In this document: positions 4,604 through 34,182 of the stretch, piece by piece
Numbering within the stretch: the first letter of the stretch is position 1
Layout of the letters: every line of letters starts with the position of its first letter
Source: an uncultured Planctomycetaceae bacterium
GTDB lineage: Bacteria; Planctomycetota; Planctomycetia; Isosphaerales; Isosphaeraceae
Length of the DNA stretch: 64,000 nt
Assembly: GCA_963833985.1 (NCBI GenBank)
Contig: CAWIAD010000001.1
Location: 1,184,001 to 1,248,000, forward strand
Reading direction: 5' to 3'
Translations under genes and position numbers: made by a program
The notes under the pieces: model-generated
What the model saw: the letters and a program-made list of their open reading frames with translations, nothing else
The model's database searches: none
Told to the model about the DNA's origin: nothing

Positions 4604-4757
4604 GATCCACCTCGAAGTCCAAGGACCTGCGACAGAACGCAACTCCACCCGTATCATCTCCGGGAGCGGCCGACTCCCCGGTCGTCGCCGTGTCGGCCCT
4701 GTTGTCGCTGGCCGACCGGCTCAGGCAACGAAAGCAATCGACCCCAGGATATCACTC

Positions 4758-4952
4758 ATGCGCGACCGCCTGGACCAATCAGTCCCCCCCCCGCGCTGCG
4801 TGACGCCGCCCGGCCCACGCCCCGGCGTCTCGATCTGGCCGACGCTCACGACGGATCAGCAACAGATCCTGCTCCACGCCCTCAGCCGACTGCTCGCCCG
4901 GCGCCTGCCCGTCGCGCCCGACGCCAAGGAGGTGCGCGATGAGCGAAACTGA
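4758..4952 (+). CDS. Small protein overlapping the start of the recombinase gene
   Basis: 64-aa ORF (IWPTLTTDQQQILLHALSRLLARRL...KEVRDERN); its 3' end carries AAGGAGG, the recombinase RBS. Confidence 0.45.
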   Translation: MRDRLDQSVPPPRCVTPPGPRPGVSIWPTLTTDQQQILLHALSRLLARRLPVAPDAKEVRDERN

Positions 4953-6571: not shown

Positions 6572-6755
6572 CTCTCGCCACTCGGCGCTGGTGCGACGAG
6601 CGTCCCTGCGCGGTATCATCTGAAGCTGGCGATCACCGGATACGTATACGTCTGACGACCGCCCGACGAGCGGCTGATCATTGTCCGATGTGTGAAGGGC
6701 GAATATTTCCATCGCATCAACAAGGCCGGCGATGCTAGTTAATAATCTACGTGTG

Positions 6756-6770
6756 TGATTCATAGAATCA
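6756..6770. promoter_or_regulatory. Palindrome TGATTC-ATA-GAATCA in an AT-rich region upstream of the aldo/keto reductase
   Basis: Perfect 6-bp inverted repeat seen directly; operator role is inferred. Confidence 0.35.
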
Positions 6771-6855
6771 TATCGATCTAAAATGTCTTAACGAGATCAA
6801 TGCTCATCTGGGATATTGTGGCCGAGAGCATGCATGCAACACGAGGAGGCAACAC

Positions 6856-7838
<983 letters not shown>

Positions 7839-7883
7839 ACCGTACGCCATCCCCACTTCTATAATGATGCCGGGGAGGACTTC

Positions 7884-16503: not shown

Positions 16504-16774
16504 CGGCAATCCCACCCGTTCGTCGCACCCGGTGCGCGCCCGGCGCCGCAGAGCGCAAGGCTCGATCGTCTGTCATTCTAAAGGACATTCTCGGCCGGCA
16601 AGTGCCCTTTTCCCGACCCAGTGCTTGCAATCGTGATGAACAGGAGTCACGTTGGACATCGTCTGACCCGCCGCGCTGCTTAGAATGTCCGGCGGGCACT
16701 ACCGGCGTGCTGCACGGGATCGACGATCGAGGAAGCTTCGCCTCGGAAAACCGAGGCCAGACAGCGAGGGTGCC

Positions 16775-17833
16775 ATGCGTGGCGACACGCCGATCGCGCG
16801 TCAGTGGAAGCTGCTCAGGATGCTTGGCTGTCGGCGTCTCGGCTTGACCATACAAGAGATGAGCACAGAAACGGGAGTCGGGATCAAGACCATCCGGCGC
16901 GATCTGGACTTTTTCCGCGGCCTTGGCTTCCCCTTGACGGAGCACGTGTGCGAACGGGGCCTCAAGCGGTGGCGACTGGCGGGTGCGCACGTGGAACCGC
17001 CCCTGGCATTCAGGCTCGACGAGGCGATTGCCCTCTACCTGGGCCGGCACCTCATGGACCCGCTGGCAGGAACGCCTTTGTGGGACGCCGCGCAGAGTTC
17101 CTTCCGCAAGATCAAGGCGACGCTCGGCGAAAAGGCCCTCGAGTACATCGAGTCCTTTCGCGGCTTTTACCACCAGACGTCCGTCGGCACCAGCTCCTAC
17201 GCCGCCAAGGCCGAGGTGATCGACGCGATCATGGTCGCACTGGAGGACCGGAAGGCAGTACACATTGCCTACCAGTCCCTCAGGGCCACGGAGCCGGCGA
17301 CCCGAGACATCTATCCCTATGGTTTCATCTACCACCGCGGTAGCCTCTACCTGGCGGCCTTCGCACCCGAGCACGACCGGGTCAAGACCTACAAGGTCGA
17401 TCGCGTCGAGAGCGTCGAGGTCAGCAACCGGCGCTTCGAGCGACCCGCGGACTTCGACCTCGACCGGTTTCTCTCAGGCTCGTTCGGGGTCTTCGAGGGC
17501 GAGGGCGATCTCCTGACGGTGTGCGTCCGCTTTGCGCCGTGCGTGTCGCGGTACGTCAGGGAAGCGCACTGGCACTCCAGCCAGGAGCTCACCCCTCAAA
17601 CCGATGGCAGCCTGCTCGCCCGGTTCCACCTCAACAGCCTCGAGGAATTCAGGGCCTGGATCCTCGGCTTCGGCTCGAACGCTCTCGTGTTGCAGCCGAC
17701 CTCCCTGCGCACCGAGATAGCGGCGGAGGTCGGGCTCATGCTCCGTATGTACGGGCAGGAAGTTGGTGCTGGAGATGACATGAAAGCGTTCGATGATGGG
17801 AATCAGGTCAGGTCTGTGCCAGCGGACAAATGA
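16775..17833 (+). CDS. HTH-WYL-WCX transcriptional regulator directly upstream of the cas genes
   Basis: N-terminal HTH (KTIRRDL); YPYGFIYHRGSLYL; YKVDRV; WILGFGSNALVLQP. Confidence 0.9.
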   Translation: MRGDTPIARQWKLLRMLGCRRLGLTIQEMSTETGVGIKTIRRDLDFFRGLGFPLTEHVCERGLKRWRLAGAHVEPPLAFRLDEAIALYLGRHLMDPLAGTPLWDAAQSSFRKIKATLGEKALEYIESFRGFYHQTSVGTSSYAAKAEVIDAIMVALEDRKAVHIAYQSLRATEPATRDIYPYGFIYHRGSLYLAAFAPEHDRVKTYKVDRVESVEVSNRRFERPADFDLDRFLSGSFGVFEGEGDLLTVCVRFAPCVSRYVREAHWHSSQELTPQTDGSLLARFHLNSLEEFRAWILGFGSNALVLQPTSLRTEIAAEVGLMLRMYGQEVGAGDDMKAFDDGNQVRSVPADK

Positions 17834-17897: not shown

Positions 17898-18524
17898 ATG
17901 CCAGTCGTTGACCTTGCCTTCGAGCTTGCAGGCAACTCGCTGCCCGTGGACCACGGTTATGAGCTTTTCTCCGCCATTTGCCGCGTCGTCCCGCGTCTGC
18001 ACGGCGACCGGCACATCGGCGTGCATGCCATTCGTGGTCAGGCGGCGAGCGCGGGAACAATCTTGCTCGGAGGCCGCTCGCGCTTGCGGGTGCGCTTGCC
18101 CTCGGAGGAGATCGCGGCTTACCTGGCGCTGGCCGGTTCGGCTCTCGACGTGAACGGCCATCGGCTCCGCGTCGGCATCCCGCACGTCGAGTCACTGATC
18201 CCTACCGCGAACCTGTCCGCACGCATCGTGACCTTCAAGGCCATGGTCGAGCCCGACCCGTTCCTGGCCTGTGTGCGCCGCCATCTGACCGCGCTCGGCG
18301 TTTCCGGCGACCCTCAGCTCGTCCCCTCGACGCGGGAACCCTGGACCGGCCGCCCTTTCCGCCGCGTCCTCCGCGTCAAGGGCCGAGCCATCGTCGGCTA
18401 TGCCCTGCGAGTCCTCGCCTTGACGGCGGAGGAGTCGGTCCTGATCCAGGAGCGCGGTCTCGGGGGGCGAAGGCGATTTGGATGCGGCGTCTTCCTGCCA
18501 TTGAAGGAGGTGAACCCTCGATGA
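17898..18524 (+). CDS. cas6: Cas6 (Cmx6, Myxan type), copy A
   Basis: VDLAF...PVDHGYELFSA; C-terminal glycine loop GLGGRRRFGCGVF. Confidence 0.92.
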   Translation: MPVVDLAFELAGNSLPVDHGYELFSAICRVVPRLHGDRHIGVHAIRGQAASAGTILLGGRSRLRVRLPSEEIAAYLALAGSALDVNGHRLRVGIPHVESLIPTANLSARIVTFKAMVEPDPFLACVRRHLTALGVSGDPQLVPSTREPWTGRPFRRVLRVKGRAIVGYALRVLALTAEESVLIQERGLGGRRRFGCGVFLPLKEVNPR

Positions 18525-20920
18525 ACACAGACATTTTGTGGGCCAAGAGCAAGCAGCACGAGGAGCAATACCACCCGTCCATGTCGCTCTCCGGTCACCT
18601 GTCGGATGTCCTTGAGGCGGCGATCCGGATCATAGACTCCACCGGTGACGAGCAGCTTCGGGCACTTGGTCTGGACCCGGAGCGGTACGGAGATCGACTG
18701 AGGCGATGCGTGCGGTTGGCCGCGGCCCTCCACGATATCGGCAAGGCAAACGACCATTTTCAGGGAATGATTCGCGGCAAGCGCGATGTGCGTCAGAACC
18801 CGCAGGGCGTACGGCACGAATGGGTGTCGGTTCTGATGCTACGGACACTCAGGGACTGGCTTCTACCGGTATTCGATAAGGCCGAATGCGACTTCGACAT
18901 CGTGGAATGGGCCGTATCCGCACACCACCCAGCTCGCGATCACCAAAGCCCTCCCCCCTCGTGTCCGCCAGGGGCGGGTCCGGAGATAACGCTCCTCACA
19001 GGTCATGACGAGATCCAAGGAATTCTCGACTGGGTTCAAGAAACATTCGAGATTGCCGCCCTCCAACCGAAGCACGGCTCCGAGAAGCGACCACTCGTTG
19101 GCCCGGAAAACGCGTTCACGGAGCTTGCGATTTGGGCGAAGTCGGCTCGCCGCACCTGGAATCGAATGCGTGGCGATAAAGAGGCCTCGCGGTTCGTCGC
19201 CGCGGTCAAGGCCTGTCTGATCGCCGCCGACGTGGCGGGCTCGGTGCTGCCGAGGTCCGGGGTGGACGGATCGACGGATTGGAATTGGATTGCAAGGGCC
19301 TTATCGAACCTGCCGAAATCGGGCGACGTCCAGAAGATCGCCGATCATCGCCTGGACGGCAAACCACCCCGCGAATTCCAGCAAGCGGTCGGGGCTTCTC
19401 ACTGGCCGGTCACTTACGTCAAGGCGGGTTGCGGGACCGGCAAGACCGTGGCCGCATACCTCTGGGCCGCTGTCAACCACCCGACACGCCGGCTCTTCTT
19501 CTGCTATCCCACGACGGGCACGGCCACGGAGGGGTTCAAGGATTACCTGTTCGAGCCGGACGGAGAGCTGGGAGATCTCGGCGCCAGGCTGTTCCACAGC
19601 CGGCGGGACGTGGACTTCGACATCATCCTCGGCACGGGTGCAGACTCGCCGCATGCCGAGGCTGACTCGGCCGCGCGGCTGGAAGCGCTGGAAGCCTGGT
19701 CCACACCCATCGTCGCCTGTACGGTCGATACTGTCCTTGGGCTGGTTCAGAATAACAGGCGCGGTCTCTTTGCCTGGCCCGCTCTCGCCCAGTCGGCCTT
19801 CGTCTTCGACGAGATCCACGCCTACGACGACCGGCTCTTCGGAGCACTGCTCCGGTTCCTTCGAGACCTCCACGGGCTCCCTTGCCTGTTAATGACTGCC
19901 AGCTTGCCGAAGCCGCGCGAGGAGGCGCTCTTTCGGACGATCCGGGATGTCCACGACCTGGACCTGCGGCCGATCGAGGGCCCGCGGGAGCTCCAATTAC
20001 TGCCGCGCTACCATAGGCTGAACGCACCCGGCAATGACCCGCTTCCCCTCGTACAGGCCGAGCTCAGGGCCGGCGGCAAGGTGCTCTGGGTCTGCAACAC
20101 GGTGAGCCGTGTGATGGATGCGGCCGACCGCGCCAGCCAGCTCAATCCGCTCATTTACCATAGCCGGTTTCGCTACGTGGATCGTGTTGAGCGGCACAAG
20201 CGAGTTGTCGAGGCCTTCACTCCCGAACACCATGGCCCCGCGCTCGCGATTTGCAGCCAGGTCGCCGAGATGAGCCTGGATCTGAAGGGTTGCACGCTGC
20301 TCGTCACCGACCTGGCGCCGGTTCCGTCCCTGATCCAGCGGTTGGGAAGGCTGAACCGCCAGGCCGCGCCTGGCAACCCGACCAGGCCATTCGTCGTGGT
20401 GGAGCAAGACGAGAGCTCGCGCGACAGGCACCTTCCTTATGCCGCAGGCGACCTGGACGCGGCCCGGACCTGGCTGGAACGTCTGCCGGAATCGGAGATC
20501 AGCCAGCAGCATCTTGCCGATCACTGGGAGCAACTGGCCGAGAAACCGCCAGAACTCGTGCCGAGCGCCTGGCTCGATGGCGGCCCGTCGACAATTGTCA
20601 CGGATCTGCGCGAACCGTCGCAGGGGATCACGGTGATTCTGGATACCGCGGAGTACCCGGATCACCGTGCGCTCCTGCGTTACGATAACCGGATCCGCGA
20701 GTTGCGTCGCAGGGCGCGCGCCGACCAGCGCAGCCTGAGCCGAGAAGAACGGAAGCCACTCCCGGGGGAGCAGGATCGCCTGGCAGCCGTGACGCTGCCA
20801 ATGCCTCCACCTCACGCTCACATCAGGTGGCGCGAGTGGACGCGCTACAAGAGCATACCGGTCGCGCCAGCCGAAGCCATCCACTATGACCTCGAACGAG
20901 GTGCCCGATGGAACGCCTGA
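18521..20920 (+). CDS. cas3: Cas3 HD nuclease-helicase
   Basis: LHDIGKAN; AGCGTGKT; DEIHAYD; MTAS; HSRF; QRLGRLNR; ATGA overlap with cas6. Confidence 0.95.
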   Translation: MNTDILWAKSKQHEEQYHPSMSLSGHLSDVLEAAIRIIDSTGDEQLRALGLDPERYGDRLRRCVRLAAALHDIGKANDHFQGMIRGKRDVRQNPQGVRHEWVSVLMLRTLRDWLLPVFDKAECDFDIVEWAVSAHHPARDHQSPPPSCPPGAGPEITLLTGHDEIQGILDWVQETFEIAALQPKHGSEKRPLVGPENAFTELAIWAKSARRTWNRMRGDKEASRFVAAVKACLIAADVAGSVLPRSGVDGSTDWNWIARALSNLPKSGDVQKIADHRLDGKPPREFQQAVGASHWPVTYVKAGCGTGKTVAAYLWAAVNHPTRRLFFCYPTTGTATEGFKDYLFEPDGELGDLGARLFHSRRDVDFDIILGTGADSPHAEADSAARLEALEAWSTPIVACTVDTVLGLVQNNRRGLFAWPALAQSAFVFDEIHAYDDRLFGALLRFLRDLHGLPCLLMTASLPKPREEALFRTIRDVHDLDLRPIEGPRELQLLPRYHRLNAPGNDPLPLVQAELRAGGKVLWVCNTVSRVMDAADRASQLNPLIYHSRFRYVDRVERHKRVVEAFTPEHHGPALAICSQVAEMSLDLKGCTLLVTDLAPVPSLIQRLGRLNRQAAPGNPTRPFVVVEQDESSRDRHLPYAAGDLDAARTWLERLPESEISQQHLADHWEQLAEKPPELVPSAWLDGGPSTIVTDLREPSQGITVILDTAEYPDHRALLRYDNRIRELRRRARADQRSLSREERKPLPGEQDRLAAVTLPMPPPHAHIRWREWTRYKSIPVAPAEAIHYDLERGARWNA

Positions 20921-21014
20921 CGGCATCAATGAATGGGGACTTACCCCGAGATTCGGTTATTTCGCAAGTACCTCATTGCTCAACGCCTTGCGGCGATCCT
21001 GGTACAGATTGCGG
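20906..21014 (-). CRISPR. Antisense mini-CRISPR: two degenerate repeats and one 34-35 nt spacer; probable crRNA-like regulatory RNA
   Basis: Minus strand reads ...ATCGCCGCAAGGCGTTGAGCAA (18/20 match to the 3' end of the main repeat), spacer TGAGGTACTTGCGAAATAACCGAATCTCGGGGTA, then AGTCCCCATTCATTGATGCCGTCAGGCGTTCCATCG; both hairpins are kept. Confidence 0.82.
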
Positions 21015-21025
21015 TCCTTTCTTAG

Positions 21026-21052
21026 TTGACACCAAGGGGGCTCGAATGTCAA
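21026..21052. promoter_or_regulatory. TTGACA-N15-TGTCAA inverted repeat (two facing consensus -35 hexamers)
   Basis: Seen directly between the mini-CRISPR and its target; no clean -10 at 17 bp on either strand. Confidence 0.55.
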
Positions 21053-21057
21053 TAGTT

Positions 21058-21079
21058 ATGTGAGGAACCTGAGAAATAA
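21058..21079 (+). promoter_or_regulatory. ATG PAM plus 19-nt partial protospacer for the mini-CRISPR spacer (putative Cascade operator)
   Basis: ATG-TGAGGAACCTGAGAAATAA versus spacer TGAGGTACTTGCGAAATAA; runs into the RBS AAGGAG (21078-21083). Confidence 0.78.
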
Positions 21080-21091
21080 GGAGCCACCCCG

Positions 21092-21337
21092 GTGAGAGAC
21101 ATAGACCTCGTTGACGAGATTACCATGTTCCTAAGGTCCACGACAGCCTATCGGATCTGTCGGCCATACGGTGCTGAGCCGCGTGATGCACTTGGCGAAA
21201 TCTACCTCCGCTTGCTCGGCGGCGCCAGTAAGCCGATTCGAAAGCCGACGGCATGGGTGAGGACGAACGCGACTTTTCTTCTCCGGAATTACCTGCGGCG
21301 CGAGAACAGCCGACTCTACCAGCCCTCGGAGATCTAA
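21092..21337 (+). CDS. Sigma-70 region-2-like small protein (81 aa)
   Basis: DALGEIYLRLL...IRKPTAWVRTNATFLLRNYLRRE resembles the ECF region 2 pattern; AAGGAG RBS and GTG start. Confidence 0.6.
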   Translation: MRDIDLVDEITMFLRSTTAYRICRPYGAEPRDALGEIYLRLLGGASKPIRKPTAWVRTNATFLLRNYLRRENSRLYQPSEI

Positions 21338-21338
21338 C

Positions 21339-21617
21339 ATGCCCCTCTTTTCTCTCCAATCGCTTCAATCTCTGGGAACTGACTTTAAGGACGAGGCCAG
21401 GTATGCCCTTGAGTCATTCGAGCTTCGCGATCTTGTGGCTCGGGAGCTCATGCGACTCCCCCAGCGGGAGAGGGAAGCCATAACGGCCCTCGCCGGTCTC
21501 AGCACCGAGTCATGCCGATCTGTTGCTCGAAAACACGGCGTGTCAGCGCAGACGGTTTCCAATTGGGCCAAGGAGGCTCAGCGCAAGTTGCGTCCCAAGC
21601 TGGAGGCTTACGCGTGA
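21339..21617 (+). CDS. Sigma-70 region-4-like HTH protein (92 aa)
   Basis: LMRLPQREREAI...SVARKHGVSAQTVSNWAKEAQRKLR; GGAG 7 nt upstream; stop overlaps the cas6 copy B GTG. Confidence 0.78.
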   Translation: MPLFSLQSLQSLGTDFKDEARYALESFELRDLVARELMRLPQREREAITALAGLSTESCRSVARKHGVSAQTVSNWAKEAQRKLRPKLEAYA

Positions 21618-22219
21618 GGTTCGTACTCGATATTTGTTGGCCGCTCTTACCTCCAGGGCGATTCCCCGTTCACTACCAATATTATCTGCTAGCCAGTCTC
21701 TCGCGAATAGTGCCCGAGATTCACTCCACCCCCACCCTGGGTGTCCATCCGATTCGTGGAATGAAGTCCGCCCTCGGGTTTCTGGAAATCGATCGGCGCA
21801 GTGCGGTAACACTCAGAGCACCTGCCGAGGTTCTTCCGACGCTGGTCCCGTTAGGAGGAAAGAAACTCGACATCGGCGGGTGTCAAGTCCGGCTGGGCGT
21901 TCCACGACTCACCGCCCTGGCGCCCGCAGAGCGCCTTCGAGCCGACCTCGTCACTATCAAAGGATACATGTCGATGCCCGAATTCGAGTCGGGGGTAAGG
22001 AGACAGCTGTCCGCGCTTGGGATGAGCGATGAAGTCCGTGCGGAGGTTGGGCGTCGACGGGTCGTCCAGATACGGGGACAGACCATCGTCGGCTTCGGCC
22101 TTCGCCTCTCCGGTCTCTCCGAGGACGAGTCGGTCCGAGTTCAGCAGTACGGACTCGGGGGACGGCGACACTTCGGCTGCGGCCTATTCCAACCTGACTT
22201 GACGGAGATAACGTCGTGA
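21614..22219 (+). CDS. cas6: Cas6 (Cmx6-like), divergent copy B
   Basis: GVHPIRG; LVTIKG; GLGGRRHFGCGLF; GTGA overlaps at both ends. Confidence 0.88.
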   Translation: MRFVLDICWPLLPPGRFPVHYQYYLLASLSRIVPEIHSTPTLGVHPIRGMKSALGFLEIDRRSAVTLRAPAEVLPTLVPLGGKKLDIGGCQVRLGVPRLTALAPAERLRADLVTIKGYMSMPEFESGVRRQLSALGMSDEVRAEVGRRRVVQIRGQTIVGFGLRLSGLSEDESVRVQQYGLGGRRHFGCGLFQPDLTEITS

Positions 22220-23910
22220 AGGGCGCTGAAAAGAAAACGAGGTTACAAGAGGGTCCAAGCCATTTGACCATGCGCCTCTTCGCCCCGGGTATGTCGGTCC
22301 TGCACCGCGCTGGGCTGGGCGGGCTGGCCTGCACGCTGAATGCGGTGGAAGATCGGCATCGAAGCGGGCTGTTGCGCCCCGAGCGATTGCCCGCGCCGTT
22401 CGAGGGCGACAAGCCCCCCTGGGAGATCGACGAGCAGTCGGTGACGCTCCGGTTCGGCAAGCCCGAGAACGCGGGCGAGTACCTGAGGAAGCTTTTCGAG
22501 TTTGCCTTTCAAATTCGCAAGGACGGCCTGATCAGCCTGCCTGGGCAATTCCAAGGGGAGTTATCGGCAGCCGTGCTCGCCGACTTGCAATTGGGGCTCA
22601 CGCTGACGTTCTTGCAGCACGGCCGGGTTCGGGCTCTTGCGAAGGAGGCCACCGTAGCCAGCTATGATACTGACGGAGATGGTGTTCCCGGAGTCGTGGT
22701 CCAGTACAAGAAGTGCTCGGCGTTCAAGCACCAGAAGGGCTGGGAATCGCTGGTTGGCGGCAGTGGCGCCCTGGTATCCGGTTCCATCGCTGTCGATGGG
22801 CCCATCAGTCCCGGCTCGGTCGTGAGGCACGTGGCATACACCGGCGATACGGGTATCGAGGATCCTCCGGAGCGGATGCTTCCTCTGTACTTCGCGCTCG
22901 TCGGCTGCCTGGCCCTGCCCGTGAACCGTGGCGTCGCGGCGCTCATCGTTCCGGATGTCACGGACCTCTCCGAGTTCGTCCTCGATCGTGCGGCGATGAC
23001 CCCGACAACAGCAACGCAGTGCCAGATCGCCGGTGCCGCCGACGCCGCCTTCAGCGCCCAGGTGCGAATCCGCCGCAATCCAAGGAGATCCGCCGAGGTG
23101 GAGTCGAGGGCTCGCCAGGCGCTGTCTGGGTCCGCAATCCCGGCATGCTACGCCATGACCTTCACGCCGACTCCCTGGGCCAGTCAGCAGAAGTCTCGCG
23201 TGGCGACGATCATCGTTCCTCAGGGAGAGAAGCGAACGCTGGACCTCTACGAGCGAGCCGCCACTCACCTGCCCGCAAGGATTGCGACTCGCACGGTCCG
23301 AGAATCGACCGGGCGTGGCAAGCAGCGCACGGTGACCGAGCGCCAGGAGTCGTTCCGAGCCGATAGCATTGTCCGCCCCCTGGTCGCCGAGAACCTGGCA
23401 TTGGGCCGCCCCTGGTATTCCGGGTTCGTGAAACTACTGACCAAGACAAACCCAGCGACCGGCAACCCTTACCGCAACCAACTTCCCTTCGAGCGCGGAG
23501 GATTGAATGCCATGATTTCAGATCCCCAGATGTGGGACGACCGGGGAGAGGAGCTTATCGTCAAGGCCGTCCACGAGGCCATCCGGCAGACCCTTGGCCG
23601 GATCAAGCAGGAGACCGATGGGCCGGGGAACAAGCCGCCCTCACAGGCGACCAAGAACCGCTGGACGAGGTTCCAGGAGAAACTGCGGCTCTCGCTGGCC
23701 GAATCGAAAACCCCAAACGACGCCCGCCATGCCCTGTGCAATCTGTTCAGCCGGGCTGGCCGCGTGCCCGCTCTGGCCGAGTATTGGCAGCTTGTGCTGC
23801 CCAAGCTCGCCGACCGCCGCTGGCAACTGACGCGCGACCTGGCCTTGCTCGCCCTCGCGAGCTATTCCGGCAGATCCAGCGAAAACGGTGACGAACAACC
23901 TCAACAGTGA
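22216..23910 (+). CDS. cas8: Cas8 large subunit (Cmx8/Cas8a1 Myxan type)
   Basis: MSVLHRAGLGGL; TFLQHG; WASQQKSR; RDLALLALASY; position before cas7 and cas5. Confidence 0.88.
   Translation: MKGAEKKTRLQEGPSHLTMRLFAPGMSVLHRAGLGGLACTLNAVEDRHRSGLLRPERLPAPFEGDKPPWEIDEQSVTLRFGKPENAGEYLRKLFEFAFQIRKDGLISLPGQFQGELSAAVLADLQLGLTLTFLQHGRVRALAKEATVASYDTDGDGVPGVVVQYKKCSAFKHQKGWESLVGGSGALVSGSIAVDGPISPGSVVRHVAYTGDTGIEDPPERMLPLYFALVGCLALPVNRGVAALIVPDVTDLSEFVLDRAAMTPTTATQCQIAGAADAAFSAQVRIRRNPRRSAEVESRARQALSGSAIPACYAMTFTPTPWASQQKSRVATIIVPQGEKRTLDLYERAATHLPARIATRTVRESTGRGKQRTVTERQESFRADSIVRPLVAENLALGRPWYSGFVKLLTKTNPATGNPYRNQLPFERGGLNAMISDPQMWDDRGEELIVKAVHEAIRQTLGRIKQETDGPGNKPPSQATKNRWTRFQEKLRLSLAESKTPNDARHALCNLFSRAGRVPALAEYWQLVLPKLADRRWQLTRDLALLALASYSGRSSENGDEQPQQ
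23512..23910 (+). CDS. cas11: Putative Cas11 small subunit from an internal in-frame start in cas8 (132 aa)
   Basis: GGAGGA at 23497-23502, 9 nt before an in-frame ATG; internal Cas11 translation is known for I-B, I-C and I-D. Confidence 0.65.
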   Translation: MISDPQMWDDRGEELIVKAVHEAIRQTLGRIKQETDGPGNKPPSQATKNRWTRFQEKLRLSLAESKTPNDARHALCNLFSRAGRVPALAEYWQLVLPKLADRRWQLTRDLALLALASYSGRSSENGDEQPQQ

Positions 23911-23931
23911 ACTTCCTGGAGAAAAAAACCC

Positions 23932-24819
23932 ATGAGCCTGCACGTATTCGCGAACTTCGTGACACCCTTTGGCGCGGCGGCCAATAACCGGGCCGAGACC
24001 GAGGGCAACATCACGACCCTTCAAAAGCTCGTCTGGATGGGGGAGACACACACCACCGTGAGCGCCGAGGCCATCCGCTTTGCTCTTCGAAGGCGACTCG
24101 CTTCCCTTGATGAGCGGGGTTCGAACCGCAAGTGGGACGAGGACGAGAGGAACAACACCTGGCAGGACTGGACATTCAAGGGATGGACCTCGAAGGGCGG
24201 CGAGACATTCATCGACGACGACCTGCTCGGCTTCATGACCGCCGAGGCCGCGAAGGAAGAAGGCGAGTCGGGCACCGCCAACGTCCGCCGGGCGGTGCTG
24301 GAGGTGACGCGGGCCGTATCGCTCACCCCGTGGTCGGGTGACGTCACGTTCAATGCAGCATCGCCGGGCGCCACACCCTCGGCACAGAAGAAAGGGAGCA
24401 ACCCGGTGCCATACGGCACCGAGGTCCACGCGACTCGCTACCAGTACGGCATCGCGCTGACGCCCGAGCGGCTTCGCGACAGCTCCCGGGCGGCGAAGGC
24501 CATCGAGGCGCTCTGCAATCTCGGCACGGTCGCCGGTAATCACGGCCGTTTTCTTTTCGACTTCTCACCCGACGCCGTCGTCTTCCGCATCACCCAGGAT
24601 CCCGCGCCACGCCTGCTGTACTGCTTCGAGACAGCGGATGACGGCAAGAGCATCATCGCCCCGCGCCTGGAGGCCCGCGTCAGCGCTGGCGACATCGACA
24701 GCAGCGAGCTGATCATCGCGGGGGTCAAGGTCCAGGGTGTCGATACGGAAAAGGGCGTGAAGGCCGCCTGCGCCCAGGCCGTCACCAGGATCAACGAGTC
24801 CTTGAAGGCCAAGAGGTAA
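23932..24819 (+). CDS. cas7: Cas7 (DevR/Cst2 type)
   Basis: AANNRAETEGNITTLQKL; VSAEAIRFALR; FIDDDLLGFM; EVHATRYQY. Confidence 0.93.
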   Translation: MSLHVFANFVTPFGAAANNRAETEGNITTLQKLVWMGETHTTVSAEAIRFALRRRLASLDERGSNRKWDEDERNNTWQDWTFKGWTSKGGETFIDDDLLGFMTAEAAKEEGESGTANVRRAVLEVTRAVSLTPWSGDVTFNAASPGATPSAQKKGSNPVPYGTEVHATRYQYGIALTPERLRDSSRAAKAIEALCNLGTVAGNHGRFLFDFSPDAVVFRITQDPAPRLLYCFETADDGKSIIAPRLEARVSAGDIDSSELIIAGVKVQGVDTEKGVKAACAQAVTRINESLKAKR

Positions 24820-24822
24820 TCC

Positions 24823-25458
24823 ATGCTCGGCTTGTACGTTACCGTTCCGATCGCCTGCTTCCGGAAAGGTCTGGCGCGGGAGTATCTCGAGACCGAGCCC
24901 CTGCCACCGCCCGCGACGTGCTACGGCTTCCTGCTCTCGTTGGTCGGTGAAACCGATCGGCGGCGGCACATCGGTGCTCGCGTTTGCCCCGCCCTGCTCA
25001 ACAAGCCGGAGATGAGCGTCGTCATCAGGACCGTCTGGCGCGTCAAGAAGACGCCCCTGGGCTCGTCGGGAAATACCCGGCCTGACTATCAGCAACTTCT
25101 CTCGCCGATCCGTCTGCTCATCTGGCTCGACTCCTCCGAGGAAAAGGGCGAGCAGCCAGGGCTGGAAGACCGCGTATCCGTCGCGCTTGACGAGCCTGGC
25201 CGCATTTCCCGGTTCGGCGGCCTCTCCCTCGGCGAGAGCACGCACCTGGTTGATGAGGTTCGGCGCCCACGCGCCGGCGACGACGAAGACGTTCCAGCGC
25301 GGGCGTATCTCCTGGCCGAACGGGGACGCCTGTCGCTGCCGGTCTGGGTTGACCATGTCGGATCGGCCGGCACCCGCTTCGCGGTCGGGGAGCTTGTCGA
25401 TCAGCACGGAATGAAGCCGCCGGATCGAATCCGGATGCCCATCATTACTCCAACATAG
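24823..25458 (+). CDS. cas5: Cas5 (DevS/Cmx5 type)
   Basis: VPIACFRKGLAREYLETEPLPPPATCYGFLLSLVGE; GGLSLGESTHLVDE. Confidence 0.93.
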   Translation: MLGLYVTVPIACFRKGLAREYLETEPLPPPATCYGFLLSLVGETDRRRHIGARVCPALLNKPEMSVVIRTVWRVKKTPLGSSGNTRPDYQQLLSPIRLLIWLDSSEEKGEQPGLEDRVSVALDEPGRISRFGGLSLGESTHLVDEVRRPRAGDDEDVPARAYLLAERGRLSLPVWVDHVGSAGTRFAVGELVDQHGMKPPDRIRMPIITPT

Positions 25459-25491: not shown

Positions 25492-27150
25492 ATGCCAGAA
25501 CAACCGCTCGACGGTCGCGCTACCCGTCTGCGCGTGATGTCCCTGCACGCCCTGGCCTACTGCCAGCGTCTTTTCTACCTGGAGGAGGTCGAGGAGATTC
25601 GCGTCGCCGACGAGCGCGTCTTCGCCGGTCGCGAGCTGCATGCGTCGCTCGAGGCCGGTGAGGACGGGGAGCGAACGCAACTTGAACTCGAAGACCGCGA
25701 CCTGGGACTGGTGGGCAAGGTCGACGCCCTCCGGAAACGGGATGGATCGCTGGTGCCTTATGAGCACAAGCGAGGGAAGTCGTGCAAGCTTGACGGGCAG
25801 GCCCATGCCTGGCCGTCCGACCGGCTCCAGGTCATCGCCTATGCCGTGCTCATCGAGTCCGCCTTCGGTCAGACCATTCCCGAGGGCCGGGTTCGCTACC
25901 ACGCCGACCACGCCACGGTGCGCATTCCCATCGACGCGCAGGCCCGCCAGGACCTGGACGATGCCATCGCGACGGCACGCCGGCTGAGCGAGTCGACCGA
26001 GCGACCCCCTGTCACCGACAACGAGCGGCTCTGTGCGAAGTGCTCGCTGGCGCCGGTGTGCCTGCCCGAGGAGAGCCGGCTCGTCGAGGACAACGGACGT
26101 CAGCCGGTCCGGCTCTTCCCGCCAGATCGCGATGGGACGACGCTTCATGTCGTGACGCCGGGCGCCCGCGTCGGCCGCAGCGCGGAGACACTCACGATCA
26201 CCTTGCCCGACGTCACCCCTCCCTCGCGCCACCCGATCCGCGGCATCGACTCCGTGCTCCTCCATGGTCATGTCCAGGCGACGACCCAGGCACTGAGCCT
26301 CTGTGTCGATCACGACATTCCCGTTCACTGGTTGACGACAACCGGCCGCCATGTCGCGAGCCTGACCGCCTCGGCCGGCCAGGTCCAGCGCCGGGTGCGG
26401 CAGTATCGCGCCCTTGCGGATGAGGCGGCCTGCCTGCGGCTCGCCCGCGCCCTGGTGCGTGCCAAGATCGAGGGCCAGCACCGCTACCTCCTCCGCGCCT
26501 CGCGTGGCGACGACTCCCAGCGCGACGCCATGGAGGCCGATCTCGTCCTGCTTCGCTCGGCCCTCTTGAGCCTGGACCAGGCAGCGGATCGCGACTCTCT
26601 TCGAGGTCACGAGGGCTCCGCCGCCGTGGGATACTTCGGCGGGCTCGGCCGGCTTCTGGTCGCCTCGGTACCCGACTCGCTGCGGTATTCCACCCGCAGC
26701 CGGCGGCCTCCCCTGGACCGCTTCAATGCCCTGCTCAGCTTCGGCTACGGCCTGCTGCACACGGCCGTCATGCGGGCCATCCTGGCAAGCGGCCTGGAGC
26801 CCTCGCTGGGCTTTTTCCACACCCCGCGCAGCGCCGCGTATCCGCTGGTGCTCGACCTCATGGAACTGTTCCGGGTCATCCTCTGGGACATGGTGGTCAT
26901 CGGCTCCCTGAACCGCGGCCAGTGGGATCCGGACGCCGACTTCCTCGTCACCAAGGCGAAGGTCTGGCTTTCCGAGGACGGCCGCAAGAAGGCGATCAAC
27001 CTGTTCGAGTCGCGCCTTGACGAGACCTGGAAGCACCCGGTCCTCGGTTACTCGCTCTCCTACGCACGGACCCTGGAACTGGAGGCCCGGCTCCTGGAGA
27101 AGGAGTGGAGCGGCGAGTCCGGACTCTTCGCACGCCTGCGGATTCGCTGA
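25492..27150 (+). CDS. cas1: Cas4-Cas1 fusion
   Basis: YCQRLFY, GKVD, EHKRG and CAKCSLAPVC (Cas4 Fe-S/RecB); LRGHEG, NALLSFGY, GFFH and DLMELFR (Cas1). Confidence 0.95.
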   Translation: MPEQPLDGRATRLRVMSLHALAYCQRLFYLEEVEEIRVADERVFAGRELHASLEAGEDGERTQLELEDRDLGLVGKVDALRKRDGSLVPYEHKRGKSCKLDGQAHAWPSDRLQVIAYAVLIESAFGQTIPEGRVRYHADHATVRIPIDAQARQDLDDAIATARRLSESTERPPVTDNERLCAKCSLAPVCLPEESRLVEDNGRQPVRLFPPDRDGTTLHVVTPGARVGRSAETLTITLPDVTPPSRHPIRGIDSVLLHGHVQATTQALSLCVDHDIPVHWLTTTGRHVASLTASAGQVQRRVRQYRALADEAACLRLARALVRAKIEGQHRYLLRASRGDDSQRDAMEADLVLLRSALLSLDQAADRDSLRGHEGSAAVGYFGGLGRLLVASVPDSLRYSTRSRRPPLDRFNALLSFGYGLLHTAVMRAILASGLEPSLGFFHTPRSAAYPLVLDLMELFRVILWDMVVIGSLNRGQWDPDADFLVTKAKVWLSEDGRKKAINLFESRLDETWKHPVLGYSLSYARTLELEARLLEKEWSGESGLFARLRIR

Positions 27151-27184: not shown

Positions 27185-27484
27185 TTGAACGACGCACGGT
27201 GGTGGCTGGTTTGCTATGATGTTCGCGACCCGGTTCGATTACGCCGCACCGCCCGGATTTTGGAGGGCGCGGGGGAGCGGATTCAGTACTCCGTCTTCCG
27301 CTGCTGGCTGAGCCCCACCCAGATGAACGAGCTGCGCTGGAACCTGACCGAGGTCCTGGAGCCCGAGGACGATGTATTGCTGATACCGCTCTGCCCGCGC
27401 TGTGTCCGGGGCATGGCCACGACCCACACCGCGACCAAGGTTCCGGACTGGCCCGCGGGTCCGGAATCCCACTCGATCGTCTAA
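27185..27484 (+). CDS. cas2: Cas2
   Basis: LVCYDVRD; IQYSVFRC; LCPRC; TTG start inferred. Confidence 0.92.
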   Translation: MNDARWWLVCYDVRDPVRLRRTARILEGAGERIQYSVFRCWLSPTQMNELRWNLTEVLEPEDDVLLIPLCPRCVRGMATTHTATKVPDWPAGPESHSIV

Positions 27485-27749: not shown

Positions 27750-30700
27750 CCGCCCTCGACCATGACGCCGAAAGGCGTTGAGCACTCATGGCCTCATCGG
27801 CGTCGATCTCCGAAAAGCCCCGCCCTCGACCATGACGCCGAAAGGCGTTGAGCACAAGGCCGGCGGCTGGGACCACAGCCGAAATCACCCCCGCCCTCGA
27901 CCATGACGCCGAAAGGCGTTGAGCACGAATACCCGACGAGATCATCGTGCTGGTGCCCTATCCGCCCTCGACCATGACGCCGAACGGCGTTGAGCACATG
28001 GCAATAGCTTCTGGTCGCGCCAGGTCGAGATGCCGCCCTCGACCATGACGCCGAAAGGCGTTGAGCACCCCTTTTTCTCGCCGTGCTGAATCGCCGTGGC
28101 GATCCGCCCTCGACCATGACGCCGAAAGGCGTTGAGCACAGAACGGGATGCACCCATAGTCGTGCGGCTCCTGGCCGCCCTCGACCATGACGCCGAAAGG
28201 CGTTGAGCACACCCGGCCGCGGCTGCGGTGCGGTCGAACCCGGATTGACCGCCCTCGACCATGACGCCGAAAGGCGTTGAGCACGAAACCGCCCCTGGGC
28301 CCTTACCACCAAGTAACGCCCGCCCTCGACCATGACGCCGAAAGGCGTTGAGCACATCGAACAGACCGCCGATCACGCCAAGCCGGCCGACCGAGCCCGC
28401 CCTCGACCATGACGCCGAAAGGCGTTGAGCACATCCTAACGACCCGAGCACATATAACACCGCGGACATCCGCCCTCGACCATGACGCCGAAAGGCGTTG
28501 AGCACACCGGCCGGCGGCGATCCGGTCGCGGACGCACGGTGACCGCCCTCGACCATGACGCCGAAAGGCGTTGAGCACGTTGAGGAACATCACCCCGTCG
28601 TCCCGCAGCACTCGCCCGCCCTCGACCATGACGCCGAAAGGCGTTGAGCACACGGCACGCCGAACAACGCCAACCCCATCAATGTGCCCGCCCTCGACCA
28701 TGACGCCGAAAGGCGTTGAGCACCGGCCTCGCCCTGGCGGACGTGGAGATCAGCGCAGCCCGCCCTCGACCATGACGCCGAAAGGCGTTGAGCACAACGT
28801 GAACGTCCCGGTGGTCAACACCGGCGACGCCCCGCCCTCGACCATGACGCCGAAAGGCGTTGAGCACGTGCTATTATTGAGTCAGTGGAGATGAGTCCTG
28901 AACCGCCCTCGACCATGACGCCGAAAGGCGTTGAGCACGAGCTGCGTGCGGATGCGCGTGTGGCGGAGCTGCCGTTCCGCCCTCGACCATGACGCCGAAA
29001 GGCGTTGAGCACGCTACCGCACCCACATTGTGCCGCTGGCCCACGAGGCCGCCCTCGACCATGACGCCGAAAGGCGTTGAGCACTCTACCGTTCGATGAT
29101 TCCCGGCGGCGCGTTCCTGCCCGCCCTCGACCATGACGCCGAAAGGCGTTGAGCACGGTGATCGGCGACGAGATCATCCCCGGCTCGAAGCTCCGCCCTC
29201 GACCATGACGCCGAAAGGCGTTGAGCACGTCTCCTTCGCCACGAAGCGGGGGACAGTGATGCTCCGCCCTCGACCATGACGCCGAAAGGCGTTGAGCACG
29301 TCAACCAGCGCGCGCTTCATACTCTGGAACAGCGACCGCCCTCGACCATGACGCCGAAAGGCGTTGAGCACCAATTGCTGCCCGCCGCCGATCAGAGGCC
29401 GGTCCTCCGCCCTCGACCATGACGCCGAAAGGCGTTGAGCACCGGCCTCGATGGTCGGATGAGTCCCCAGGCTCGCCCGCCCTCGACCATGACGCCGAAA
29501 GGCGTTGAGCACGCCCCGTCCGGCCTGCACTGGGGTGCAAGCCAGCATCGCCCGCCCTCGACCATGACGCCGAAAGGCGTTGAGCACGCTCGCCGTTGCG
29601 CGGGCGATGGCAATCACAGGCGCCGCCCTCGACCATGACGCCGAAAGGCGTTGAGCACACGCTGGCCCGTCTTGGCCTCGGCCTGGTCGAGATCCCGCCC
29701 TCGACCATGACGCCGAAAGGCGTTGAGCACCCGAGATCGCCGGCATTGAGGTAGACGCCCGCAACCGCCCTCGACCATGACGCCGAAAGGCGTTGAGCAC
29801 CACCTACCTCACTTTCTCGTCAATCTGATAGGGTCCGCCCTCGACCATGACGCCGAAAGGCGTTGAGCACAGATCGAATCCAAGAGAGTCTCCTGGCTCT
29901 GGCAACCGCCCTCGACCATGACGCCGAAAGGCGTTGAGCACTACGGCAGTTCGTCCCATGTTCCCACTAATACATCCGCCCTCGACCATGACGCCGAAAG
30001 GCGTTGAGCACCACCCGATGTCCTCAAGGTCACTCGAACCCTGGTTCCGCCCTCGACCATGACGCCGAAAGGCGTTGAGCACTCCCCGAGATGCTCGTGA
30101 GCTTCGGCAATGAGATCCGCCCTCGACCATGACGCCGAAAGGCGTTGAGCACCCAGTGATTTTGATGGCGTGCGGCATCAGGTGAACAGCCCGCCCTCGA
30201 CCATGACGCCGAAAGGCGTTGAGCACCCCCCAGGCCGTGCAAGCTCCCGGGGACGTGGGCGCCGCCCTCGACCATGACGCCGAAAGGCGTTGAGCACTAC
30301 CTACACGCGGGGCGGCACCGGGATCACCTTGACCGCCCTCGACCATGACGCCGAAAGGCGTTGAGCACGGGTTGGTGGCGGTGACCGAGAGCGTGGTCGA
30401 GGTCCGCCCTCGACCATGACGCCGAAAGGCGTTGAGCACACCCGCAAGGGCCGGAACGTCGCGGCCTACCCGCCCGCCCTCGACCATGACGCCGAAAGGC
30501 GTTGAGCACTCGCCGGCAGTGTGCTGGATCCGCTGGATGCCGTTCCCGCCCTCGACCATGACGCCGAAAGGCGTTGAGCACAACTGCGGATCTTCATGCC
30601 CCGCGTGAGCCCGAAAGCCGCCCTCGACCATGACGCCGAAAGGCGTTGAGCACCAGAACCCCGACGCGCGGGTTGATGGCGAGCTGGGGCCGCCCTCGAC

Positions 30701-33700
30701 CATGACGCCGAAAGGCGTTGAGCACTATCGGCGGCCAAGGGCCAGGGCGGCAACGCCCGTCCGCCCTCGACCATGACGCCGAAAGGCGTTGAGCACAGCC
30801 GCCGGCGGACGGACCGCCGCAGAACGGCAAGCCGCCCTCGACCATGACGCCGAAAGGCGTTGAGCACACGATCCTCGGGCACTCGCCCGACATCGCGGAC
30901 CCGCCCTCGACCATGACGCCGAAAGGCGTTGAGCACATCCGCGTCGGCGACACGATCATCGCCGTGACGGTCCGCCCTCGACCATGACGCCGAAAGGCGT
31001 TGAGCACCTGGGCAGGCTGCCTCTTCGTCCCGTACTCCGGACCGCCCTCGACCATGACGCCGAAAGGCGTTGAGCACCCGAGACGATGGTCCAGGAGTTG
31101 CCAGTCCTTCAGCCGCCCTCGACCATGACGCCGAAAGGCGTTGAGCACCAGGAGCTGTCTCGTCCGACTCCCTCACCCAGATCGCCGCCCTCGACCATGA
31201 CGCCGAAAGGCGTTGAGCACGCGCTGGGCGTGGCGAGGCTCTTGAACGACCCCGGCCGCCCTCGACCATGACGCCGAAAGGCGTTGAGCACAGTTCACCC
31301 CGAGCCCAGACGACCTTGCTGACTACCCCGCCCTCGACCATGACGCCGAAAGGCGTTGAGCACATCGGTAAGGACTTCTGGATCGGCCGGCTGATCTGGT
31401 CCGCCCTCGACCATGACGCCGAAAGGCGTTGAGCACACCGTGCCGCCGCCCGGCCAGGCCGTCGGAGCGCCATCCCGCCCTCGACCATGACGCCGAAAGG
31501 CGTTGAGCACACCAGTTCGTGCAGCTCCCAACGGCCGTCAACCAGGCCGCCCTCGACCATGACGCCGAAAGGCGTTGAGCACACGGTAATAGCTTCTGGT
31601 CGCGCCAGGTCGAAATGTCCGCCCTCGACCATGACGCCGAAAGGCCTTGAGCACACATATTCGGCGCAGCGTGCCAGCGCAGCTTGCGCCCGCCCTCGAC
31701 CATGACGCCGAAAGGCGTTGAGCACCACTTCGACACCAGGCGGGATGCGCTCGCGGATCGCCCGCCCTCGACCATGACGCCGAAAGGCGTTGAGCACAAG
31801 GAGCTGGAGGAGAACCCGCCGGCCCGGCTGCCCCGCCCTCGACCATGACGCCGAAAGGCGTTGAGCACGGCGCTGGACGCCGCGGCGGTCGCCGTCGTCC
31901 TTCTGGCCCGCCCTCGACCATGACGCCGAAAGGCGTTGAGCACCGGTTTATCCGGCTGAAGAAGGCCGGGACAATCGGCCGCCCTCGACCATGACGCCGA
32001 AAGGCGTTGAGCACTCGTCCACGACCTTGCGGCCGTAGAGGACGGGAATCCGCCCTCGACCATGACGCCGAAAGGCGTTGAGCACACCACGCACCAGCAT
32101 GAAGCCAAGAGCCGATCGGAGCCACCCCGCCCTCGACCATGACGCCGAAAGGCGTTGAGCACTCCAGATCGGCATCCTTGTCATCGACCGAAACTGTCCG
32201 CCCTCGACCATGACGCCGAAAGGCGTTGAGCACATCCGCAGCATCCCCGGCGCGTGCCGTCTGGCGGGCCGCCCTCGACCATGACGCCGAAAGGCGTTGA
32301 GCACCCGAGCCCCAGAAAGGCGCATGGCGCCAACGGGTCCCGCCCTCGACCATGACGCCGAAAGGCGTTGAGCACAGCACTGAGCCGAAACACAGGAGAC
32401 GAGACGATGCCGCCCTCGACCATGACGCCGAAAGGCGTTGAGCACTTTCCCGGAGTGCTCTGGCTATTTACGCCCCGTCCGTCCGCCCTCGACCATGACG
32501 CCGAAAGGCGTTGAGCACCGGCCCACTCCGAGCGCCCGCCGCCAGTCGGTCACGAGCCCGCCCTCGACCATGACGCCGAAAGGCGTTGAGCACCCAAGCG
32601 AAAAACGCAGAATCTCCCTGACCGTGAACGACCGCCCTCGACCATGACGCCGAAAGGCGTTGAGCACCAGCCCATTCCAGATCGCCTACTCCGTGACCAG
32701 CGACCGCCCTCGACCATGACGCCGAAAGGCGTTGAGCACCTCGTCATCGCGGCCTGCGCCGCACCGATCATCGCGCCGCCCTCGACCATGACGCCGGAAG
32801 GCGTTGAGCACTCCCAGGCCGTGAACGACATTAGCAGCTCTGCGTTCCGCCCTCGACCATGACGCCGAAAGGCGTTGAGCACATCCGGGTACGAGCGTAC
32901 TCTGGCTCAGTCCGGCTGCCGCCCTCGACCATGACGCCGAAAGGCGTTGAGCACGGGTAACGCCTCCGGCTTGCGGACGGGCGACGGTTCCGCCCTCGAC
33001 CATGACGCCGAAAGGCGTTGAGCACTCACTCTGAATAGCGGCACCGGTGGCGCCACCCTGCCGCCCTCGACCATGACGCCGAAAGGCGTTGAGCACTCTG
33101 GCGATCGTCGCCTGGACATCAGCCAGTTGCGCCCGCCCTCGACCATGACGCCGAAAGGCGTTGAGCACTCGTTGCCGTTGAGCAGCGTGTCAATCCCCTG
33201 GTCCAGGCCGCCCTCGACCATGACGCCGAAAGGCGTTGAGCACCTCGATGCGCGCGACGAGTCCAACGCGGGGGCGACCGCCCTCGACCATGACGCCGAA
33301 AGGCGTTGAGCACTCTATGTTTCGACGGGCAAGCCCGTCCCGGGCGACTTCCGCCCTCGACCATGACGCCGAAAGGCGTTGAGCACTCCATGAGCCGCAG
33401 CTTGCCGCGCTCCAGAGCCATGGCCGCCCTCGACCATGACGCCGAAAGGCGTTGAGCACAGCAGCAACAAGCCGCGTCAGATCCCCACCGTGTCCGCCCT
33501 CGACCATGACGCCGAAAGGCGTTGAGCACCGGCCTGGTCAAGGGTGACGGTGAACGCCGAGCTGGCCGCCCTCGACCATGACGCCGAAAGGCGTTGAGCA
33601 CCGCGTGTCGGACTGGACCACGCCCGGGCCGTAGGCCGCCGCCCTCGACCATGACGCCGAAAGGCGTTGAGCACGGGTTCTACGTGTTGCGCCACGACGG

Positions 33701-34182
33701 CAATTTCGGCACCGCCCTCGACCATGACGCCGAAAGGCGTTGAGCACCTGACTGAGGCTGCTGACGTGGCGTGGCCACAGGAAGGCCGCCCTCGACCATG
33801 ACGCCGAAAGGCGTTGAGCACTCAGGCTCGGCTTGCGTCCCTCGGGGAACCGATCGCCGCCCTCGACCATGACGCCGAAAGGCGTTGAGCACAAGCTCTC
33901 GATCCTCGTCCCTGTCCGCGAACGCACGCCGCCCTCGACCATGACGCCGAAAGGCGTTGAGCACCGGGTCTCCTCGCTGATCCACGAGCGGTCGTTCAAG
34001 AGCCGCCCTCGACCATGACGCCGAAAGGCGTTGAGCACGAGCACCTGCCGGCGACCGGTCTGCCGGCGCTCCTGCCGCCCTCGACCATGACGCCGAAAGG
34101 CGTTGAGCACACCAAGAGGCCGCACCATTCGGGCTCCCTCGGACGACCGCCCTCGACCATGACGCCGAAAGGCGTTGAGCAC
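27750..34182 (+). CRISPR. CRISPR array with about 90 repeats and 89 spacers (33-41 nt); repeat CCGCCCTCGACCATGACGCCGAAAGGCGTTGAGCAC
   Basis: 36-nt repeat counted by hand; ACGCC-GAAA-GGCGT hairpin and TTGAGCAC handle; orientation from leader position and repeat family. Confidence 0.99.

Follow-up and report, generated by a model that had tools for sequence, protein, structure and literature searches.

A 64,000-nucleotide (nt) stretch of contig CAWIAD010000001.1 from an uncultured Planctomycetaceae bacterium (positions 1,184,001 to 1,248,000 of the forward strand; hereafter, the window) carries a full type I-B (Myxan) CRISPR-Cas system, in which the finding of interest is the insert between cas3 and cas8. 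This insert consists of a two-repeat mini-array, a target matching its guide, two small open reading frames (ORFs A and B) that resemble regions 2 and 4 of sigma factors, and a second cas6 gene (cas6b). All these elements, along with cas3 and cas8, lie where a sequence-only reading of this DNA had placed them, and its principal claim, a guide-repressed promoter serving the sigma-like ORFs first and then cas6 and the Cascade genes, gains support, at the level of sequence comparison, from conservation of the layout and from co-variation of guide and target. The Cascade-sensing half of such a circuit is already known from CreR/CreA; what is new is what would be released, a family of sigma factors of the extracytoplasmic function (ECF)-like kind that is tied to CRISPR loci, is split in most members and comes without an anti-sigma. 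Disabling of the CRISPR system would probably release a transcription switch, which is possibly a growth brake, together with fresh Cascade.

The mini-array, its target and their conservation

The mini-array lies antisense to cas3 and comprises two repeat-like units that flank a single spacer, the layout of CreR-type arrays. The distal, degenerate repeat (20905..20940, minus strand), which overlaps the stop codon of cas3, and the leader-side repeat (20976..21011, minus strand), in which seven of the eight handle bases are those of the main repeat, both retain the stem-loop, and the guide spacer between them (20941..20975, minus strand) is 35 nt long. The strand was set by the main repeat ending in an 8-nt handle, an orientation that we presume and that is consistent with the ATG located 5' of the seed. 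A genome scan with the 23-nt conserved half of the repeat, allowing up to 5 mismatches, yields four matches outside the main array, and the only one of these within the cas locus is the mini-array.

The guide pairs with the plus strand immediately after an ATG (21058-21060), the putative protospacer-adjacent motif (PAM), at spacer positions 1-19 except for 6, 9 and 12; the PAM and target together occupy 21058..21079 (plus strand). The mismatch at position 9 would be a G-U wobble, and positions 6 and 12 are among those flipped out in Myxan Cascade, so that this site shows the partial seed match beside a PAM with tolerated sixth-base mismatches that is typical of CreR-type guides. Indeed, the Myxan Cascade of Synechocystis recognizes an AYG PAM and flips out every sixth base (PMC11096372; here and below, statements drawn from cited papers pertain to the accessible parts of those papers). 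Both values, which may not be those of the present system, were adopted for scoring over 17 bases (positions 1-20 minus 6, 12 and 18). This site scores 15/17, against 11/17 for the next best among the 56 sites in the 10-Mb genome that combine an ATG with a 5-nt seed match (drawn from ~248,000 ATG sites on both strands), so the guide has one clear genomic target. The main-array spacers have no full-length self match in the genome, so the PAM receives no confirmation from that source. The target lies 31 nt 5' of the start of ORF A (21092..21337, plus strand) and abuts its ribosome-binding site. We infer a promoter in front of ORF A; a scan with the sigma70 consensus detected none in 20700-21800, where the TTGACA hexamer is 19 nt from the best -10-like hexamer.

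Searches with Cas7 and region fetches produced 45 related loci, which, after removal of 5 duplicates and 9 fragments lacking the region, left 31 in addition to the window; most of the related cas-locus records are labeled Planctomycetota. The arrangement of cas3, mini-array, target, sigma2, sigma4, second cas6 and cas8 is found in five of the 32 non-redundant loci (the window, L015, L019, L021 and L030). A sixth locus, L018, contains a WYL gene, a mini-array, a TATAAT hexamer, a target and a gene for a 144-aa protein, followed by cas6 and cas3. This second layout lies at 1860-2511, between WYL and cas6, and recurs in the duplicate L036. The 144-aa protein does not align with the ORF A/B family and has no Pfam match; its sigma-like label comes from its Atlas neighbors, a minority of whose members carry sigma domains (the top neighbor cluster is recorded as phage, from few records), and from motifs read by eye. 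Thus, two non-alignable sigma-like proteins occupy the same slot behind a mini-array. In L015, the mini-array (5185-5257) is compressed, its first repeat and distal stem being 28 nt apart (47 in the window), yet its seed still matches.

When the loci were searched with a matrix built solely from main-array repeats, a two-repeat array with an ATG-flanked target was detected in these six loci and in none of the other 26. The latter also lack matches to the two family profiles and to the L018 protein, with the caveat that a few of them are rearranged and that other divergent sigma-like genes could be missed. Guide and target co-vary in all six loci, always with an ATG and always ahead of the sigma-like gene; the cognate pairs score 12-16 of 17 and are the best or tied for best in every row of the six-locus comparison. 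The joint presence of mini-array and sigma-like gene in 6 of 32 loci, and the detection of neither in the remaining 26, suggest that the guide exists to restrain the sigma gene. The distance between the PAM and the first start codon spans 22-105 nt across the six loci.

The fourth element of the insert, cas6b (21614..22219, plus strand), is a fast-evolving second Cas6 that accompanies the cassette. These second Cas6 proteins form two long-branch clades (support 100/99 and 100/100) apart from cas6a. In the window, an otherwise invariant active-site His is replaced by Tyr, and L019 and L030 have a changed glycine loop; cas6b may be specialized for the degenerate repeats of the mini-array. In a quickly built Cas7 tree with weak support, the cassette-carrying loci fall in three places, one of them beside a cassette-less locus. 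Taken together with the Cas6b clades, this scatter suggests that the cassette moves or is lost as a unit.

A palindrome, TTGACA-N15-TGTCAA (21026..21052, strandless), lies between the mini-array and the target. It is a candidate bidirectional promoter or operator: it could serve the locus sigma as a promoter for both the operon and the guide, or bind a regulator such as WYL. In the form TwGAC-N17-GTCwA, it is found just 5' of the PAM in the window, in L015 and, with one change on both sides, in L021. No copy within one mismatch was detected in leaders or 5' of WYL/cas6a across the available loci. The strict motif has two sites in the genome, and the N17 spacing (13 sites) is not enriched relative to other spacings (10-29 sites). 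The only other strict copy (G000:C2:1243416) is located 5' of an ORF that by eye is aminotransferase-like and looks unrelated.

The sigma-like pair

ORF A (81 aa) consists of a sigma region 2-like domain of a CRISPR-tied family, and ORF B (92 aa; 21339..21617, plus strand) of a sigma region 4-like helix-turn-helix (HTH); the latter has its own GGAG ribosome-binding site and a stop codon that overlaps the start of cas6b. The Pfam matches are to Sigma70_r2 for ORF A (E-value 2e-4) and to Sigma70_r4 for ORF B (E-value 3e-4), so that regions 2 and 4 are both represented, and a two-domain family profile matches AlgU, RpoE and SigL across both domains (E-values 2e-5 to 4e-3). The best fold matches of the ORF A AlphaFold model, which has a predicted local distance difference test (pLDDT) score of 92, are the sigma2 domains of RpoE and related sigmas, with a Z-score of 6.5 that is middling for helical folds; a Foldseek search gave no match at an E-value of 0.001 or better. 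Inspection by eye indicates that the pair keeps what we take to be the core-binding acidic pair and the region 2.3 Trp, and does not keep the usual Gln and the basic residues of region 4.2, to which we likewise presume sigma roles. Co-folding of ORF A with the beta-prime clamp of the same organism gives weak support for an interaction, which may reflect likeness to complexes already solved (score 0.53, compared with 0.01 for the best of three controls; contact agreement between runs at least 92%, partner pLDDT at least 73). The mark applied is reached by 116 of 157 solved and by 2 of 215 mismatched pairs, with 18 of the solved pairs and both mismatches at 0.60 or under.

A phmmer search of 1.84 billion representatives with ORF A returned 37 matches, of which one repeat protein was set aside. 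Among the remaining 36 representatives, 7 are fused sigma2-sigma4 proteins and 29 contain sigma2 only, some perhaps cut at contig ends. In three, the protein is extended at its N-terminus by what, by eye, are translated mini-array repeats, suggesting three more loci of this kind. Unlike ECF sigmas, in which both domains belong to one polypeptide, the window encodes them in adjacent separate genes, as in two-subunit sigmas; this split is found in four of the five loci (window, L015, L019 and L030), and the domains are fused in L021. The cas6a, cas8 and cas4-1 genes of L021 contain frameshifts that point to assembly indels, which makes its fused sigma less certain, and a near-identical sigma2-only representative exists (P0019). 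A tree of split and fused forms, built on few alignment columns, implies 6 changes, 2 of which are forced by well-supported branches. Nonsynonymous divergence (dN) is 0.49-0.59 compared with synonymous divergence (dS) of at least 2.1 or saturated in all eight pairs (local alignments), indicative of purifying selection on both ORFs. The abundance of sigma2-only representatives and this selection imply that the split is probably not decay. The sequence-only reading had named an arrangement unique to this genome and decaying as a finding that would count against it; instead, the layout is shared with four other non-redundant loci, and both ORFs are under selection.

The family is rare and, where context was available, is found in cas loci only. 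Strong matches to the sigma2 profile appear in 2 of 401 genomes sampled from the class, 2 of 121 from the family and none of 401 from the phylum, in samples that overlap and with the second match duplicating locus L015. Another 13 matches in the class genomes are weak and belong to full-length ORFs of 181-197 aa, the one checked being an ordinary ECF sigma. None of these samples yielded a family member outside cas loci, and no match to the ORF A/B family was found in plasmids, phages or viral contigs. Word-indexed homolog searches with either ORF alone recovered only self-matches, and ORF B alone gave three weak matches in 61 related genomes, all in longer proteins. In the Atlas, the neighbors of ORF A include clusters of stand-alone 87-94 aa proteins (score 0.95-0.96), one with 20% Sigma70_r2, a hint that sigma2-only proteins are more widespread. 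No anti-sigma gene was found between cas3 and cas8, where there is no room or ORF for one.

Proposed function, alternatives and precedents

Our tentative preference, guided by analogy and falling short of an even chance, is for a dose-dependent sigma guard, a self-amplifying operon that would throttle growth upon the loss of Cascade. The mini-array, whose anatomy is plain, would give an antisense transcript from which processing, perhaps with cas6b as the dedicated enzyme, yields a guide for loading into the Cascade of the same locus. By the known CreR/CreA logic, Cascade would likely occupy the ATG-flanked site where the sigma2-sigma4-cas6b-cas8-cas7-cas5 transcript begins, with the ~19 paired positions making a roadblock without cutting by Cas3. 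ORFs A and B likely encode the two subunits of an ECF-type sigma (a single fused protein in some relatives) that would bind the RNA polymerase core, with Cascade taking the anti-sigma role. As in CreR/CreA, anti-CRISPRs or competing CRISPR RNAs would release the promoter. If Cascade were inhibited, titrated away or lost by deletion, the two sigma subunits would be the first to rise; the pair would probably feed back on its own promoter and refill Cascade, and at a high level, it may slow or stop growth by competing with the housekeeping sigma, as in the precedents below. The outcome would be protection against anti-CRISPRs combined with addiction to the cas genes.

We favor this guard because the guide occurs only where a sigma-like gene sits, because varied sigma-like payloads have been recruited, because neither an anti-sigma nor a regulon is seen, and because there are precedents. 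The split sigma Sig7-8 of Tn916 autoactivates and kills when overproduced (10.64898/2026.10.01.756105), and SigN is intrinsically toxic, killing via sigma competition (PMC10601692). In the dev operon of Myxococcus, loss of DevTRS raises the transcript 10-fold, and the inhibitor DevI, encoded by the first gene, is overproduced (10.1101/2023.07.26.550624). Among the outputs that the sequence-only reading had entertained, a toxin thus finds support in analogy and co-occurrence, activation through recruitment by Cascade is disfavored by the geometry, and for backup defense no regulon was found.

Several observations weigh against the guard. The six positive loci represent about three lineages, and 5 of the 26 negative ones have less than 500 bp upstream; the cassette is missing from L022, whose sisters in the Cas7 tree are two cassette loci, so it can be absent or lost. 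Both domains of the pair fall below the Pfam cut-offs, the fold Z-score reaches just 6.5, and the recognition helix of the sigma4 half, QTVxNW, resembles a generic HTH more than an ECF one. The palindrome, on which the idea of a cognate promoter rests, is present in just three of the six loci and shows no genome-wide enrichment. Finally, the pair seems to be co-transcribed with Cascade, so its basal levels must be tolerated.

Such co-transcription would fit a feed-forward role, and the main rival to the guard is a harmless amplifier or regulon switch, in which repression is the same and the freed, non-toxic sigma transcribes its own operon, the guide or other (defense) genes. A locus-linked ECF sigma, DdvS, drives a cas operon in Myxococcus (PMC6061681), and the conserved TwGAC-N17-GTCwA motif, being the same on either strand, could drive operon and guide alike. 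Against this stand the lack of a detectable regulon and the scarcity of the palindrome, with its two strict genome sites and unenriched spacing; we consider such an amplifier possible although rather doubtful.

A somewhat smaller chance is given to plain CreR autorepression of the cas genes, with the ORFs being passengers or acting independently of RNA polymerase, for example with the palindrome serving as an operator for the HTH of ORF B. Described type I-B mini-arrays include ones aimed at the cas6 promoter (10.1101/2023.03.03.530964), and ORF B scores similarly against generic HTH families and sigma4. However, no mini-array was detected in any of the 26 loci that lack a sigma-like gene, conservation of the sigma2 half equals that of the HTH, and 7 of 36 representatives, as well as L021, have the two halves in one protein. 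Autorepression alone is unlikely.

Quite improbable is recruitment of the sigma pair for RNA-guided activation, akin to that of dCas12f with its sigmaE. The pair would dock on DNA-bound Cascade, or on cas6b within it, converting the type I complex into an RNA-guided activator whose level the mini-array sets; if true, this highly speculative scheme would be the first class 1 case of RNA-guided transcription activation. The dCas12f case features a degenerate sigma together with guides that autoregulate (10.1101/2025.06.10.658865), and the ORF A/B family is confined to cas loci wherever context is known. Nevertheless, the variable PAM-to-start codon distance would make a start 46 bp past the PAM intragenic in four of the six loci, promoter-like motifs lie 5' of the PAM (TATAAT in L018), the guide lacks a further genomic target, the cas3 gene is intact, and the sigma-like protein employed by L018 is non-alignable. 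Least credible is that this genome carries an ECF gene that is frameshifted and decaying or that its assembly is in error, as might be suspected from the single base between the ORF A stop and the ORF B start (the fused product would be ~173 aa, like the fused relatives) and from the relative, L021, with frameshifts in three cas genes, but this is contradicted by the recurrent split with a separate ribosome-binding site in four of five loci, by the 63%-identical relative P0041, from other assemblies, that ends at the same residue, and by the 29 sigma2-only representatives and purifying selection.

The closest known systems are CreR and other regulatory mini-arrays (10.1101/2023.03.10.532045; 10.1101/2023.03.03.530964), which share with this locus the antisense two-repeat array beside cas3, the PAM-flanked seed match, the sixth-position mismatches and, apparently, the target at the start of the Cascade operon. 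Here, unlike in CreR, the first genes predicted to be repressed are the sigma2/sigma4 pair and the second cas6, and a sigma output is absent from the accessible parts of the CreR accounts. CreTA and CrePA (10.1101/2024.01.05.574328) involve a Cascade-repressed accessory gene inside the cas locus that is freed by anti-CRISPRs, as is proposed here, but their known toxins are RNAs that sequester transfer RNAs or a division inhibitor, whereas the present payload is sigma-like, apparently co-transcribed with Cascade and, by analogy, potentially toxic. The dev operon of Myxococcus xanthus shares DevR, DevS and the Myxan Cas8a1, its Cascade subunits repress their own operon, and its first gene weakly autoactivates and, if overproduced, becomes inhibitory; the product of that gene, DevI, has 40 residues, and the accessible part of the account names no guide for this operon (10.1101/2023.07.26.550624). 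The mini-array guide suggests itself as a mechanism for the reported DevTRS autorepression, given that the cas families are the same.

Like the pair described here, Sig7-8 (10.64898/2026.10.01.756105) and SigO-RsoA (PMC7826278) have regions 2 and 4 on separate neighboring genes, a likeness of gene layout; unlike the present family, in which fused and split forms coexist, they are not CRISPR-linked. The dCas12f-sigmaE system (10.1101/2025.06.10.658865) also unites a CRISPR effector, a guide and an ECF-like sigma in one locus, but it is a nuclease-dead type V system in which transcription starts at a fixed 45-48 bp from the target-adjacent motif (TAM) without a promoter motif, whereas the window encodes an intact type I system with a repression geometry. 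The six loci show neither a fixed target distance (22-105 nt) nor a lack of promoter-like motifs, which lie 5' of the PAM, and the guide of the window has a single genomic target. The CASP-sigma of type III-E is reportedly a sigma tied to a CRISPR locus and held by an anti-sigma protein. The ECF sigma DdvS (PMC6061681) is similarly tied to a CRISPR locus, but it is held by an anti-sigma protein rather than by Cascade-guided repression.

No description of a type I mini-array controlling a sigma factor was found in the accessible literature, and the large supplementary tables of the mini-array survey may list such loci; the accessible parts of 10.1101/2024.01.05.574328, 10.1101/2024.10.29.618823 and PMC7826278 contain none. 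Under such control, Cascade-guided self-repression would reach beyond cas genes and simple toxins to a component of global transcription, with Cascade standing in for the anti-sigma and turning an anti-CRISPR attack into a sigma-factor response. The locus also adds a family of CRISPR-tied, ECF-like sigmas that occur naturally in split and in fused form.

Other features of the window and of related loci

The assignment of the system to the type I-B Myxan class follows from Cas8a1/Cmx1, DevR, DevS, Cmx6 and the Myxan Cas1, all of which score above curated NCBIfam cut-offs. All genes of the locus are on the plus strand, starting with a WYL-domain regulator of the HTH-WYL-WCX architecture (16685..17833; WYL and WCX above cut-off, HTH_11 at residues 39-84), the true start of which is probably near 16775. 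An inverted repeat, GGACAT-N25-ATGTCC, at 16654-16690, 5' of this gene, is a candidate autoregulatory operator; its GACA/TGTC half-sites resemble those of the 21026-21052 palindrome. The regulator is followed by the canonical cas6a (Cmx6; 17898..18524), recognized by family profile matches, and by an intact cas3 with HD and helicase domains (18521..20920). Downstream of the insert are cas8 (Cas8a1/Cmx1, Myxan; 22216..23910), cas7 (DevR; 23932..24819) and cas5 (DevS; 24823..25458), each above its NCBIfam cut-off, then a cas4-cas1 fusion (25492..27150) and cas2 (27185..27484), both with family profile matches, and the main CRISPR array of 90 repeats and 89 spacers (27750..34182, plus strand). 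Two of its spacers (27998-28033 and 31583-31618) are near-copies with few changes, suggesting repeated acquisition from related invaders.

Some of the related loci show features of their own. L017, a locus without a mini-array, carries between WYL and cas6 a PIN-like ORF and a small partner (3114-3810, minus strand) that are VapBC-like by eye. In L053, cas6-cas8-cas7-cas5 and a 3-repeat array (4380-8480) stand with no match to cas3 or cas1 in the 18 kb fetched. In L025 (6000-8400), where cas6 and cas3 were not found in the flank, transposase-like ORFs are located directly 5' of cas8.

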